From a virus (Duplodnaviria > Heunggongvirae > Uroviricota > Caudoviricetes), in IMG/VR virus record IMGVR_UViG_2617270954_000006: a DNA stretch of 6,705 nt. One strand, given 5' to 3'. The notes under the pieces were generated by a model, which had not been told where the DNA came from, searched no databases, and saw only the letters and a program-made list of their open reading frames with translations. The number at the start of each line of letters is the position of its first letter. Position 1 is the stretch's first letter. Shown in pieces: positions 1 to 3,696 of this stretch. A program made the translations under genes and the position numbers.

Positions 1-1684
1 CCCTAATGAGGCCGGACAACCGCAGATGGAAGTGATGATGCGGGATCAACTGCAGAAAGCCTCTGCGGTGCTGGCGGTGATGGATTACACCCAGATGAAC
101 TCAAAAGCGGATGAAGACGTCCGTAAAGAGCTTAATGCCATTGCTGACGTATCAGCCGGCCGCCTGTTTGTGCTGGTCAATAAATTTGATGAGAAAGACC
201 GCAATGGCGATGGGGCAGATGCCGTACGCCAGAAAGTTCCGGCAATGCTGAACAGTGATGTGCTGCCCGCCTCCCGCGTTTATCCAGGCTCATCACGTCA
301 GGCATACCTGGCTAACCGTGCGCTTCATGAGTTACGAAAAAACGGTGAGCTTCCTGTTGATGAAGCCTGGGTCGATGATTTTGTCAGGGAAGCTTTCGGT
401 CGCATGAAAAAAGAATACGTCTGTAAAGACAGCGAACTGGCAACTGAAGGGGCGACAGACCTGTGGGAAGGCTCCCTGATCGACCAACTGATAACGGAAG
501 TCATACAGAGTTCACATTCCAGAGCCGCGGCACTGGCGGTTGATTCTGCTGCCGCAAAACTGATGCAGAATGCGGAAAATGTCAGTGAATATCTGTCATT
601 ACGCCATCAGGGGCTGCAGCAAAGCATTCAGTCACTGCAGGCGCATATCTCCAGCCTGCTGGCGGATATCCGGGAAATAGCAGACTGTCAGGAGCAGGTG
701 ACCGCTGATGTCAGAATGGCCATGGAGGACATCAATACCAAAACCGGGGAATTACTGACGGGGGTCTGCACCTCACTGGAAGAGGAGCTGAATGACTATT
801 TCAGAAACGGTAAACGCAAAGAACAGCAAATGCTGGAGGAAGAAGACGCAGAACAACGAAGGTCTCAGTCCGGATTATGGGGAAAGATTTCTCAATGGTC
901 CGGTATCAACAACCAGGGCTGGGAGGATTACAGGAAACGAGATTTTGACCCGGACAGCCCCGAAATAAAATTCAGTGATCGCAGGGAAGCTCTTGAACTG
1001 ATGACGCAAATCGAATCGACCGTGACCAGCCTGCACCGTGAGGCTGAAGCACAGTTCCGGCCTGAGCTGGAAAAAATCGTCAAAGGTATTGAAACTGGTT
1101 TTCGTGGTACGGCCCTGTATGCCGCAGAAAAGATTGCCGGACGTATCAATGCCCGCCTGGAGGATGAGGGCTTTACCGTAAAAATCACTTTCCCGGTAGT
1201 CAGCCAGTTACAGACCCGGCTCGCGATGAAAACCAACTTAAGCACTCTTCTGGAAGAACGACCAGAGAAGATCACACGCCATCGTCGGCAGAGTGGTCTC
1301 TGGGGAAAAGTTTGTGGGTGGTTGGGCACCAGTGACTGGGGCTGGGAAGAATATGTTGATATCGTGCATCGCAGCGTGATCAATATGAACACGGTCAGAG
1401 AGGAAGTGATGTCTCTGACCCGGGCATATTTCGGGGAACTGCAGACATCCATTGAGCAGAATATTAACCAGCCCGTCCGCCAGGAAATCGATGCCTTTTT
1501 CTGCGCATTCAGGGAGAAAGTTGAACAGCTACGTAACACGCTGATTCAGAGCTCTGAAGATCATAAACGCGATCAGCAGGCGCAGGAACGGCTTACCGGG
1601 CGTCTTCAGGCATTAAATGAAAGGGTTCCCGAGTTGATTACTGACAGTAAGGCGTTAAAGGAAGAACTGGAGACACTGCTGTGA
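1..1684 (+). CDS. Dynamin-like GTPase (bacterial dynamin-like protein, CrfC/LeoA-like), 5'-partial; the window shows the end of the G domain plus a long helical stalk
   Basis: The reading frame is open from base 2 to the TGA at 1682-1684, so the gene starts upstream of the window. A G4-type motif hhhhNKxD (FVLVNKFD, nt 179-190) sits near the visible N-terminus, implying G1-G3 lie upstream. It is followed by about 500 aa of charged, helix- and coiled-coil-rich sequence typical of dynamin stalk/neck regions. An internal duplicated Trp-rich motif is present. Codon usage and GC (about 52-55%) are coherent across the ORF. Confidence 0.7.
   Translation, partial: PNEAGQPQMEVMMRDQLQKASAVLAVMDYTQMNSKADEDVRKELNAIADVSAGRLFVLVNKFDEKDRNGDGADAVRQKVPAMLNSDVLPASRVYPGSSRQAYLANRALHELRKNGELPVDEAWVDDFVREAFGRMKKEYVCKDSELATEGATDLWEGSLIDQLITEVIQSSHSRAAALAVDSAAAKLMQNAENVSEYLSLRHQGLQQSIQSLQAHISSLLADIREIADCQEQVTADVRMAMEDINTKTGELLTGVCTSLEEELNDYFRNGKRKEQQMLEEEDAEQRRSQSGLWGKISQWSGINNQGWEDYRKRDFDPDSPEIKFSDRREALELMTQIESTVTSLHREAEAQFRPELEKIVKGIETGFRGTALYAAEKIAGRINARLEDEGFTVKITFPVVSQLQTRLAMKTNLSTLLEERPEKITRHRRQSGLWGKVCGWLGTSDWGWEEYVDIVHRSVINMNTVREEVMSLTRAYFGELQTSIEQNINQPVRQEIDAFFCAFREKVEQLRNTLIQSSEDHKRDQQAQERLTGRLQALNERVPELITDSKALKEELETLL
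857..931 (+). repeat. Intragenic protein-level repeat, copy 1 (RRSQSGLWGKISQWSGINNQGWEDY) within the dynamin-like ORF
   Basis: Direct translation of frame 2: R-R-S-Q-S-G-L-W-G-K-I-S-Q-W-S-G-I-N-N-Q-G-W-E-D-Y. It shares the pattern R-x-Q-S-G-L-W-G-K-[IV]-x-x-W-x-G-x(3-4)-G-W-E-[DE]-Y with the copy at 1283-1354. Confidence 0.6.
1283..1354 (+). repeat. Intragenic protein-level repeat, copy 2 (RRQSGLWGKVCGWLGTSDWGWEEY) within the dynamin-like ORF
   Basis: Same frame, about 425 nt downstream of copy 1. The nucleotide-level similarity is also visible (cagtccggattatggggaaag vs cagagtggtctctggggaaaag). Confidence 0.6.
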
Positions 1685-2586
1685 CTTCACCATTTATTCA
1701 ACAAATTGCTGATAACCGGGTATGTCAGGTACTCACCTGTTTTCCTGAAAAATTTGTGGTTGATTTCGCAAACGGTATTGATGTTGCACAGGAGCATATC
1801 CGCATGGCCGGAGAGCGCACGTTCTTCCGGCGTTTAAAAGAGGGGCTGACCGGCGAAGGTGCTGCACGGCAGAATGCCATCAATGCTGCGCTTGCACAGG
1901 GCGTTGAGTCATCCCTGCGCTGGCTGACGGAACTGACAACGTCGCTTGCCACCACAAACTACGCGATTACCCGGGTAAACGACAGGGTCAGTTCACTGGT
2001 CAGTGATACTGCCAGGCTGGCGCATTATTCGGCTGACACGCGGGAGCAGTTACTCACCCTGGCCGATCAGGTTCACCAGAAACTGAATCATCTTGAAGAG
2101 AGACTCCACCGTGTTGACCAGGTTCAGCGGGCACAGTTACATCTTGAGCAGATATTCTCATGGTGGAGCGCCGGGCGATATGCGTCATTTTCTCCTGCCG
2201 GACGCTGTTATGTGGCACTTGAAGAACTCCGTTGGGGCGCGTTTGGTGATGTGATACGTCAGGGCGAAACAGGCCAGGTTAACCAGTTACTGGATATTCT
2301 CAGACATAAAGCATTAACGCAGATGGCACAGGAGAGTGGCGGTAGCGCAACAGTGCGTCTGAACACACTGGACTGGCTTGGTGGTCAGAGCCGGGAGCAG
2401 GCAGATAACGAATGGCATGAAGCGATTAACTGGCTGGGGGACTGGTGCAGTGAAGAGCGGCATCCGGTGATCTGGTCAACCACGCAGGCTGCAGAATACT
2501 TACCGGTTCGCATGCCCCGTCTCTGCTCTGCAGAACGTCTCTCTGAAAGTATGGTCGATGAAATATTTCAGAAGGGGGCTGCATGA
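1681..2586 (+). CDS. Hypothetical helical/coiled-coil protein (301 aa), dynamin partner of unknown function
   Basis: Its GTG start at 1681 overlaps the upstream stop (GTGA), with a GGAG Shine-Dalgarno at 1669-1672, 8 nt upstream. The ORF is uninterrupted to the TGA at 2584-2586, which overlaps the next start (ATGA). It has a predicted helical, heptad-like central segment (…LVSDTARLAHYSADTREQLLTLADQVHQKLNHLEERLHRVDQVQRAQLHLEQ…) and a Trp-rich C-terminus. No catalytic or transmembrane motif was recognised. Confidence 0.75.
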   Translation: MTSPFIQQIADNRVCQVLTCFPEKFVVDFANGIDVAQEHIRMAGERTFFRRLKEGLTGEGAARQNAINAALAQGVESSLRWLTELTTSLATTNYAITRVNDRVSSLVSDTARLAHYSADTREQLLTLADQVHQKLNHLEERLHRVDQVQRAQLHLEQIFSWWSAGRYASFSPAGRCYVALEELRWGAFGDVIRQGETGQVNQLLDILRHKALTQMAQESGGSATVRLNTLDWLGGQSREQADNEWHEAINWLGDWCSEERHPVIWSTTQAAEYLPVRMPRLCSAERLSESMVDEIFQKGAA

Positions 2587-3653
2587 GTACAGAAATGAAA
2601 ACGGGGCTGGTGCTGTCCGGCGGCGGGGCGGTGGGCGCTTATCAGGCGGGAGTGGTTAAGGCACTGGCAGAGTGTGGGGCACAGATCAGTATGGTTTCAG
2701 GGGCCAGTATCGGGGCTCTCAATGGTGCCATTATCGCGGCTTCTCCCGATTTGTCAGAAGCTGCCGCACGCCTGGAGGCGCTCTGGGAGCATCTGGGGAA
2801 TAATCAGGTGCTGTCGGTAAACCGATCGGTTTACTTTTCATTGCTGAAAAAATTGTTCCAGGCAATGAACCTCTGCCAGATCCCCGGACGTGCAGGAGTA
2901 CTGCTTACGACGCTTTTTCGCCATATATCGACAATCAACGGGTTCGAAAATCTGATGACTCAGCCGTTGTTGTCAGATGGGCCCCTGACTGCGCTGATGG
3001 ATCATTATCTTGATACTGATGCTCTGGCAGACGGGCTACCGTTGTATGTGTCGCTGTACCCCACAGAAGGAGGCATGCAGGATATTATTGACTGCATTCG
3101 TGCTGAACTGGGTGCCGGAACCACGAAAAACGCCGTTTTTCAGCATATCCAGAGTCTGCCCCGCGGACAGCAGAAAGAGGCTCTGCTTGCGTCAGCCGCA
3201 CTGCCCCTGTTGTTCCGTCCCCGTGAAGTTCAGGGAAAAATGTACTGTGATGGTGGTATGGGCGGATGGCGAAATATGCAGGGAAATACTCCTGTAACGC
3301 CTCTGGTCGATGCCGGATGCAATATGGTGATTGTGACACATCTGAGTGACGGTTCTTTATGGGATCGCCAGGCTTTTCCGGACACCACAATCCTTGAGAT
3401 CCGTCCCCGGAAAAGACTGAAACATGCAGGTGATGGTGGCAACAGTGGCGGTCTGCTCAGTTTCACATCGGCACATACCGACACCTGGCGTCAGCAGGGC
3501 TATGAAGACACGATGTTGACGATGGAGCATATCCGGAAACCGCTGGCGGCGCGTCAGGCACTGACCCGGTCAGAAACGGTGTTGCAGAAAAGTCTGGAGA
3601 AAACGGAAGAGGCAGATTCGGCACTGAGAAACGCGATGGCCCGACTTAAATAA
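2583..3653 (+). CDS. Patatin-like phospholipase (PNPLA family), 356 aa
   Basis: Gly-rich oxyanion motif S-G-G-G-A-V-G at residues 12-18. Nucleophile-elbow G-x-S-x-G as G40-A-S42-I-G44 (nt 2700-2714, Ser codon agt at 2706-2708). Catalytic Asp in a D-G-G motif (C-D223-G-G, gat at 3249-3251). The spacing of the three motifs matches the patatin fold. The ATG start overlaps the upstream stop. Confidence 0.9.
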   Translation: MSTEMKTGLVLSGGGAVGAYQAGVVKALAECGAQISMVSGASIGALNGAIIAASPDLSEAAARLEALWEHLGNNQVLSVNRSVYFSLLKKLFQAMNLCQIPGRAGVLLTTLFRHISTINGFENLMTQPLLSDGPLTALMDHYLDTDALADGLPLYVSLYPTEGGMQDIIDCIRAELGAGTTKNAVFQHIQSLPRGQQKEALLASAALPLLFRPREVQGKMYCDGGMGGWRNMQGNTPVTPLVDAGCNMVIVTHLSDGSLWDRQAFPDTTILEIRPRKRLKHAGDGGNSGGLLSFTSAHTDTWRQQGYEDTMLTMEHIRKPLAARQALTRSETVLQKSLEKTEEADSALRNAMARLK

Positions 3654-3668
3654 AGACGCTCCGGAGAA

Positions 3669-3696
3669 ACGCCACCGCCTGTGGTGGTGTTTTTCT
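3669..3696 (+). terminator. Putative rho-independent terminator of the dynamin-patatin operon
   Basis: 16 nt after the patatin stop. Stem ACGCCACC (3669-3676) pairs with GGTGGTGT (3683-3690) with one G-U pair, loop GCCTGT, followed by TTTTTCT (3691-3697). Confidence 0.5.

Follow-up and report, generated by a model that had tools for sequence, protein, structure and literature searches.

The closest characterised relatives of the proteins considered here are RdcA and RdcB. RdcA is a trigger enzyme sensitive to guanosine triphosphate (GTP), which keeps it cytosolic and inactive; when GTP drops, RdcA hydrolyses and releases the nucleotide, binds the membrane and activates the diguanylate cyclase DgcE via its C-terminal domain (PMC6510439; PMC13463826). 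RdcB is bound to RdcA constitutively, and productive assemblies depend on it; the tetra- and pentaphosphate of guanosine, (p)ppGpp, counteracts GTP (PMC6510439; PMC13463826). Two point mutants mark the ends of this switch, the nucleotide-free K82A variant of RdcA being active and the T103D variant being locked off (PMC6510439; PMC13463826). Here we describe three genes in a 6,705-base stretch of DNA catalogued as viral (IMG/VR record IMGVR_UViG_2617270954_000006; the whole stretch is called the window below), in which an RdcA-like dynamin-family GTPase and an RdcB-family partner are joined by a patatin-like phospholipase. This trio is a real, conserved and mobile three-gene module assembled from proteins of known kinds. 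By analogy with RdcA, we give an even chance to the reading that a dynamin switch sensing nucleotide state would gate a membrane-degrading lipase, probably for phage defence.

Operons homologous to this one have been noticed before. In E. coli MP1, the gene cluster with the strongest induction in Kapi1 lysogens includes dynamin/RdcB/phospholipase operons from two islands (PMC12922286), and the authors of that study proposed, as a suggestion, a putative defence role for the operon (PMC12922286, BMC Genomics 2026). Another genomics paper of 2026 lists the genes of the trio in passing, and a literature search for a named defence system combining a dynamin and a patatin found none. The original prediction, made from the letters of the window, had called the trio a candidate undescribed system; this holds in that the literature searches turned up no named system of this architecture, but not in that the operon had already been pointed out as putative defence.

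A translationally coupled three-gene operon

The window is 100% identical to several E. coli chromosomes, e.g. NCCP15648, where the copy is located in the tRNA-Ser (serX)/ghrA island together with a tellurite-resistance cluster and a CP4-type backbone (small GTPase, DUF932, antirestriction, RadC, CbeA/CbtA and DUF4942 genes). Three plus-strand open reading frames (ORFs) occupy positions 2-1684 (ORF1), 1681-2586 (ORF2) and 2583-3653 (ORF3). Both start/stop overlaps claimed in the original prediction are read in the sequence, GTGA at 1681-1684 and ATGA at 2583-2586, and so is the terminator said to close the operon on the plus strand (3673-3696), in which a hairpin at 3673-3689 with a 7-bp GC-rich stem is followed by TTTTTCT. 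This hairpin and T-run after the last stop codon form the best-ranked terminator-like site of the region. Tight junctions recur in 37 other species: ORF1 and ORF2 share a 4-nt overlap in 25 of them and an overlap or gap of at most 17 nt in 36, while ORF2 and ORF3 share a 4-nt overlap in 17 and lie within 18 nt in all. A single junction among these 37 loci exceeds 18 nt, and the dynamin gene there appears disrupted. The coupling is thus beyond chance, as expected of the co-expressed unit that had been proposed, and the three proteins are produced jointly from a single translationally coupled messenger RNA.

ORF1 is cut by the window edge, so that the window holds its 3' 561 codons (2-1684, plus strand). 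Its full length was read from a 100% identical genome, where the gene starts 713 nt before the window (position 19288 of locus L001) and encodes 798 amino acids (aa). The complete protein has the G1 motif GTMKAGKST, the G2 threonine T102, the G3 motif DTPG and the G4 motif NKFD, the last of which is read in the window (residues 298-301, positions 179-190, plus strand). It matches Pfam Dynamin_N (E 2e-18, 67 bits against a cut-off of 27) and its C-terminal ~400 aa are helical by sequence; with G1-G4 and this long helical stalk, ORF1 belongs to the dynamin superfamily. The large dynamin-like GTPase had been proposed from the G4 motif and the stalk, and the P-loop, G2 and G3 motifs sought upstream are intact. 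A sequence search of the PDB with ORF1 returned only the P-loop region of the bacterial dynamin-like protein (BDLP) of Nostoc (E 1e-5).

The relation of ORF1 to RdcA extends over the whole protein. The NCBIfam CrfC/RdcA model NF007368 is matched over positions 1-737 of 742, but with 557 bits against an equivalog cut-off of 1146, and ORF1 was therefore rejected as an RdcA/CrfC orthologue and is treated as a paralogue. Over 745 aa it shares 33% of its residues with K-12 RdcA (E 4e-122), its K81 and T102 are the equivalents of RdcA K82 and T103, and G1-G4 are conserved across genera. Identity to RdcA is 51% in the GTPase half and 18% in the C-terminal half; trio-type relatives whose GTPase half has diverged as far still reach 30-33% there, and the lower value in ORF1 fits a change of output partner.

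The stalk of ORF1 also carries two similar Trp-rich motifs (SGLWGK...GWE[DE]Y), both on the plus strand. The second, RRQSGLWGKVCGWLGTSDWGWEEY (1283-1354), is family-wide, being conserved in trio-type and pair-type (RdcA) dynamins across genera, and is a candidate membrane- or partner-binding loop. The first, RRSQSGLWGKISQWSGINNQGWEDY (857-931), is an extra copy specific to the E. coli lineage within a variable stalk insertion that has no counterpart in RdcA; this copy of the motif is missing from RdcA and is not conserved in other trio-type dynamins.

ORF2 (301 aa, 1681-2586, plus strand) had been described as having no recognisable motif. This proved wrong, as it belongs to the YjcZ/RdcB family over its whole length: Pfam PF13990 (YjcZ) is matched at profile positions 1-272 of 272 with 235.7 bits (E 7.8e-70, cut-off 27), RefSeq labels the protein 'diguanylate cyclase regulator RdcB family', and its identity to K-12 RdcB is 31% (E 2e-38). 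The comparison with CrfC (YjdA) and YjcZ recommended in the original prediction thus finds ORF1 and ORF2 homologous to the two proteins over their full length, at 33% and 31% identity respectively, and the gene arrangement is that of rdcA and rdcB, in which a dynamin-like GTPase gene is followed by an overlapping YjcZ/RdcB gene. At 50% identity the family makes up only 450 clusters in a set of 1.84 billion representatives, which is a small number. A structure model of ORF2 (predicted local distance difference test, pLDDT, 69) consists of a long helical hairpin and a small alpha domain, with no informative structural neighbour.

ORF3 (356 aa, 2583-3653, plus strand) is a patatin-like phospholipase (Pfam Patatin PF01734, E 3e-27, 96.5 bits, cut-off 27.7). 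All three patatin motifs (GGGxxG, GxSxG and DG(G/A)) are present: the oxyanion-hole motif SGGGAVG at 2616-2636, with G13-G15 invariant in 42 homologues, the nucleophile elbow G-A-S42-I-G at 2700-2714 and the catalytic D223-G-G at 3249-3257, all on the plus strand. The last two are likewise invariant in the 42 homologues, in agreement with the intact dyad of S42 and D223 first reported. Signal peptide and transmembrane (TM) segment prediction gave none in ORF1, ORF2 or ORF3, which places ORF3 in the cytoplasm. Its structure model (pLDDT 78.7) shows a patatin core and a single predicted 60-residue C-terminal helix (residues 296-355, 3468-3647, plus strand), a candidate docking element, judging from the model, for helical assemblies of ORF1 and ORF2. 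The best structural matches are PlpD, CapV, CapE, VipD bound to Rab5 (4kyi) and ExoU. Patatin effectors are generally latent until an activator binds: this fold class includes enzymes switched on by cyclic GMP-AMP (cGAMP; CapV and CapE, which form ligand-bound filaments) and by the GTPase Rab5 (VipD), and ExoU is activated by ubiquitin.

Distribution and relation to the core RdcAB pair

To follow the linkage of the three genes across species, one genome was taken for each and searched with an RdcB alignment; the best 80 of 169 confirmed matches were kept. A patatin gene lies immediately downstream in 39 of these 80 loci, in Gamma- and Betaproteobacteria including Nitrosomonas, Gallionella, Sideroxydans, Allochromatium and many Pseudomonas. 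The patatin is missing from the remaining 41 loci, all of the K-12 RdcAB type and all in Enterobacteriaceae. The partition is complete, in that every locus with an RdcB outside the Enterobacteriaceae core clade has the patatin (39/39) and no core-type locus does (0/41). From locus to locus the three proteins keep step in their identity to the E. coli copies (r = 0.97), and the neighbourhoods are unrelated, with 251 clusters among 283 flanking ORFs. Patatin homologues with identities of 47-66% occur in Vibrio parahaemolyticus, Pseudomonas fluorescens and Pectobacterium, each behind genes for a dynamin of ~800 aa and a YjcZ protein of ~300 aa. The synteny that the original prediction asked to see in other genomes is therefore there, with gene order and close junctions unchanged in the loci of 39 species and on IncF plasmids.

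This linkage bears on the literal reading of the annotation, by which ORF1 and ORF2 would be an extra RdcA/RdcB-type regulator of DgcE or of another diguanylate cyclase and the patatin an unrelated passenger. The RefSeq RdcB-family name and the full-length homology speak for it. A passenger would not be expected to be linked in 39 of 39 loci with translational coupling, however, and the half of the protein that binds DgcE in RdcA is the 18%-identical one; ORF1 also stays far below the equivalog cut-off, and the trio occurs in many genera outside Enterobacteriaceae, the family in which the RdcAB-DgcE pathway is described. We regard this as highly improbable.

The core RdcAB pair (K-12 rdcA-rdcB, L002 5136-8239; loci L045-L091) is confined to Enterobacteriaceae among the recovered loci, and the patatin-linked form is distributed far more widely. 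A neighbour-joining tree of RdcB alone (100 bootstraps, unrooted) joins the pair-type sequences in one clan in 100/100 bootstraps, apart from the trio type, whose branch is broad and does not follow the species tree. RdcAB may be a lipase-less derivative of the patatin-linked form.

Within E. coli the trio is not rare cargo; strain K-12 is without it. The 4.4-kb trio (at least 80% coverage) is present in 2446 of 5426 complete genomes (45%), in up to five places per genome and mostly at 90-95% nucleotide identity. The islands that carry it include PAI-CFT073-aspV and the O157 tellurite/Cah island, and in strain 536 and O157:H7 it occupies an equal backbone position, preceded by the island GTPase or the Cah autotransporter and followed by the DUF932 gene. 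A variant with an RdcB-like protein of 63% identity is found on plasmids of Klebsiella, Enterobacter and E. coli, those of the IncF type among them. One example lies on an IS1-flanked segment of an Enterobacter hormaechei IncFIA plasmid (L092 6773-10991), and 43 other plasmid records, conjugative or mobilizable, carry it. A further apparent plasmid-borne copy (H50/L005, NZ_CP098222.1, a 37-kb 'plasmid') was ignored, nearly all of its island genes being frameshifted in what looks like a low-quality assembly. A search of 50,697 phage genomes found the trio in none, and in IMG/VR it is present in 2 of 2.9 million viral contigs, both enterobacterial. Phages thus hardly ever carry it, which is counted in favour of a defence role.

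The whole 6.7-kb window is found in only 76 genomes, so the sequence past the terminator varies. The variable cargo slot that had been placed upstream of DUF932 is real, since the trio lies between the island GTPase and the DUF932 backbone gene, which begins at window position 5999. The GC content is 0.50-0.58 over the trio and 0.34-0.43 past the terminator, and because of this fall the small ORFs located there would be a separate acquisition. These low-GC ORFs lie on the plus strand at 3782-4240, 4366-4905 and 5175-5588, between the terminator and the DUF932 gene. Two of them (152 and 137 aa) have predicted signal peptides and no family match, and the third, of 179 aa, combines a GYF_2/DUF4339 domain at the N-terminus with two hydrophobic segments at the C-terminus; at the same position strain 536 carries different ORFs and O157:H7 none. 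Further along, RefSeq annotates a frameshifted DUF905 pseudogene at 5685-5866, the DUF932 (YfjQ-like) gene (5999-6705) runs off the window end, and a 192-aa minus-strand ORF antisense to it (6005-6583) is probably spurious. An Rfam scan of the window gave no match.

A scan for sigma-70 sites upstream of ORF1 found 7 against 6.2 expected in shuffled sequence, no better than shuffled. Outside the window, ~60-110 nt upstream of the ORF1 start (L001 19177-19230), there is a -35/-10-like pair (TTAATA, 18 nt, TATTAT) overlapping three copies of ATCGATCGTT/AACGATCG, among them the perfect palindrome CGATCGTTATAAACGATCG. This arrangement is kept in strain 536 and E. albertii, and the O157:H7 copy behind cah has unrelated sequence in its place. 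The ATCGATCGTT/AACGATCG repeats are a possible operator, a candidate of relevance to the induction in lysogens.

Neighbouring genes, a possible role in phage defence and a proposed mechanism

The genes around the trio hint, by association, at a role in defence. By raw counts, the commonest Pfam families in the 251 flanking clusters are WYL (7), WCX (6) and phage integrase (5), followed by transposase, CbtA, type I restriction-modification and PIN, and PADLOC profiles (E at most 1e-10) identify HerA, type I and type III methyltransferases, mad2, DinG and several candidate systems on the flanks. SIR2 and HerA genes lie near the V. parahaemolyticus trio and a BrxR gene near that of P. fluorescens. 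A WYL-WCX regulator is encoded within 7 kb in ~10 of 37 loci, and directly upstream in Gallionella, Giesbergeria and P. putida. These BrxR/CapW-like proteins (L028 3591-4520, L037 3340-4416, L039 3374-4243 on the minus strand, and others) may be dedicated transcriptional regulators of the trio. Three Pseudomonas loci (L031, L033 and L038 3003-4412) have a further gene on the same strand, whose end lies 13 nt before the dynamin gene; its 470-aa product has no Pfam or PADLOC match and may be an extra part of the module particular to this lineage.

Of all the neighbours, JukA is the most informative. Experiments have shown it to be the sensor of infection sites in the Juk system against jumbo phages, and the effectors with which it is reported to pair vary, fusions to a patatin and to a Ras-like GTPase being among them; its commonest neighbours are WYL regulators and restriction-modification genes (bioRxiv 10.1101/2022.09.17.508391). 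In 6 of 39 trio loci the patatin gene is followed directly by one for a JukA homologue. Five of these, two in Pantoea, one in Erwinia and two in Pseudomonas, have it at full length (PADLOC E 1e-57), 3-58 nt past the patatin on the same strand, which makes a four-gene module (L013 9034-9837; L014 9034-9822; L015 8992-9795; L026 8957-9724; L046 8993-9727), and in a third Pseudomonas locus it is truncated (L009 9090-9425, same strand). The Giesbergeria locus (L037) has JukA at ~11750-12520, 2.9 kb from the trio. No JukA was found near the 41 pair-type loci, and the JukA profile matched no ORF of the E. coli window. The defence hypothesis is strengthened by this JukA and WYL linkage. The trio had been put forward as defence cargo, with LeoABC and DynA as precedents; the defence part finds support by association in the WYL, restriction-modification, SIR2-HerA and JukA neighbours of related loci and in the induction in lysogens (PMC12922286), and the choice of LeoABC or DynA as nearest precedent does not, the nearest precedent in mechanism being the GTP-sensing RdcA/RdcB-DgcE switch.

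The mobile setting could also suggest a function that serves the element itself, with the trio as an addiction or stabilisation module, or as a weapon against competing plasmids and conjugation, and the lipase as its toxic part. Copies of the trio are always on islands or plasmids, beside CbtA/CbeA, CcdAB, antirestriction and RadC genes, and copy number within genomes is high. The unit nevertheless has no antitoxin-like small gene, the flanks are not conserved outside Enterobacteriaceae, and phage sensing is what the WYL regulators and the JukA gene within the operon suggest, which leaves this explanation quite improbable.

For the evenly weighed reading, that of a nucleotide-sensing dynamin which gates the lipase, the following steps are proposed. 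From their full-length homology, ORF1 and ORF2 would form a complex like that of RdcA with RdcB, and GTP-bound ORF1 would be cytosolic and off, as in RdcA. A fall in GTP or a rise in (p)ppGpp, for which phage takeover, energy collapse and membrane depolarisation are candidate triggers, would lead ORF1 to hydrolyse and release GTP, bind the inner membrane and assemble with ORF2; this GTP-sensing step is inferred by analogy with RdcA, a paralogue. The output would be the co-encoded cytoplasmic patatin in place of DgcE, recruited or activated at the membrane and hydrolysing phospholipids from inside, a step suggested by the strict gene linkage and by the need of patatin effectors for an activator. 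The role would then be anti-phage, either of the abortive-infection type or local at the entry site, and the genomic association suggests that JukA adds an input in some lineages.

Several points weigh against this. GTP sensing is carried over from a paralogue only 33% identical, and the RdcB tree is unrooted, so either direction of patatin gain or loss is possible. The E. coli copy adjoins neither a JukA nor a WYL gene, many flanks consist of ordinary housekeeping genes, and none of the PADLOC v2 system or candidate models matches the three proteins. A prevalence of 45% in E. coli, often in multiple copies, is also unusually high for a toxic abortive-infection system.

That prevalence, and the copy number, would indicate low toxicity, and so lend themselves to a non-suicidal role in membrane maintenance. 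The dynamin and its partner would tether or seal damaged inner membrane, as DynA of B. subtilis does, and the patatin would remodel lipids locally, through the removal of damaged phospholipids or the supply of lysolipids for fission or fusion, with protection against pore-formers, colicins or phage lysis as the result. The dynamin family fold, the conserved Trp-rich loop and the DynA-type protection cited in PMC12922286 are in line with this. However, RdcA, the closest characterised relative, is a GTP sensor and not a membrane remodeller, the mobile-island, plasmid and WYL/JukA contexts are not obviously needed for repair, and those relatives of the patatin whose structures are solved are effectors that damage or kill cells. 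Membrane maintenance is accordingly unlikely in our view.

A bolder form of the defence reading is more doubtful than the gated lipase as such, and is offered tentatively. It takes the trio to be the widespread, ancestral form of an immune machine, in which the dynamin and its RdcB partner, on sensing nucleotide collapse or, in some lineages, on being recruited by JukA to the ejection site, would deliver a phospholipase to the membrane there, for instance destroying phage-made entry vesicles or killing the cell, and of which RdcA/RdcB-DgcE would be the domesticated, lipase-less descendant.

If the nucleotide-gated lipase is correct, a dynamin-type GTP or (p)ppGpp sensor gating a lipase would be a new trigger logic for phage defence. 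It would explain a gene cluster that nearly half of the sequenced E. coli carry, O157:H7 and uropathogenic strains among them, and that is at present mislabelled as a regulator of cyclic di-guanosine monophosphate, and would offer the RdcA/RdcB field both an evolutionary origin and a second output beside DgcE. The RdcA point mutants in the P-loop lysine and the G2 threonine correspond to K81A and T102D in ORF1.

Comparison with described systems

Among described systems, the island-borne dynamin-superfamily GTPases of Eleos (LeoA with LeoBC), for which a defence role is reported or proposed, resemble the trio in setting. Eleos was tried as an identity and rejected: the LeoA profile had no match, LeoBC reached 23 bits, and 0 stretches passed. 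The trio has one GTPase and not two, and its RdcB-like partner and lipase are lacking in Eleos. The LeoABC proteins of enterotoxigenic E. coli are likewise the model for a vesiculation or virulence factor, in which the trio would promote outer-membrane vesicle or toxin release or its lipase would act on host cells. The LeoA precedent (PMC4159319) and the presence of the trio on the CFT073 and O157 pathogenicity islands favour such a role. Set against this are the same LeoA and LeoBC scores, the absence of a signal peptide or linked secretion system for the three proteins, and the occurrence of the trio in free-living lithotrophs and phototrophs that have no host (Nitrosomonas, Gallionella, Sideroxydans, Allochromatium), which together make a vesiculation factor very improbable.

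The cyclic-oligonucleotide-based anti-phage signalling system (CBASS) was also rejected as an identity, ORF3 scoring 22 bits against the 200-bit cut-off of the CBASS_lipase model, with no cyclase annotated within 20 kb on either side. The CBASS effectors CapV and CapE nonetheless share with ORF3 a patatin fold with a Ser-Asp dyad, a cytoplasmic location and, on the proposed mechanism, action on the cell's own membrane and inactivity until a signal arrives. They differ in that the proposed activator of ORF3 is a protein GTPase complex and not a cyclic nucleotide, and ORF3 has a distinct conserved C-terminal region with its long terminal helix. A patatin lipase activated by a GTPase partner is known in VipD of Legionella, whose complex with Rab5 is among the fold matches; VipD, however, is secreted and acts in eukaryotic hosts, its activator is a small Ras-like GTPase, and the kinship is limited to the patatin fold. 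With Juk, the trio shares the JukA gene directly after the patatin in the six related loci, and WYL and restriction-modification genes are the commonest neighbours of both. In contrast, the E. coli window is without JukA, JukB is absent from the operon, and the trio is not among the effectors named for that system (bioRxiv 10.1101/2022.09.17.508391).

RdcA-RdcB remains the nearest relative. Both proteins are homologous over their full length, the gene order and the 4-nt overlap are the same, G1-G4 with the mechanism-defining Lys and Thr and the Trp-rich loop are shared, and neither protein set has a TM segment. The differences lie in the output and in the genetics: a coupled third gene for a patatin follows here, whereas K-12 rdcAB is followed by proP; the C-terminal output half has diverged from that of RdcA; the trio is mobile and multi-copy whereas rdcAB is a fixed core locus; and the trio forms a separate clan in the RdcB tree and falls below the NCBIfam equivalog cut-off. 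We therefore propose, by analogy, that in its working the module would be closest to RdcA/RdcB, with another output, and that the logic of its effector would be that of CBASS.

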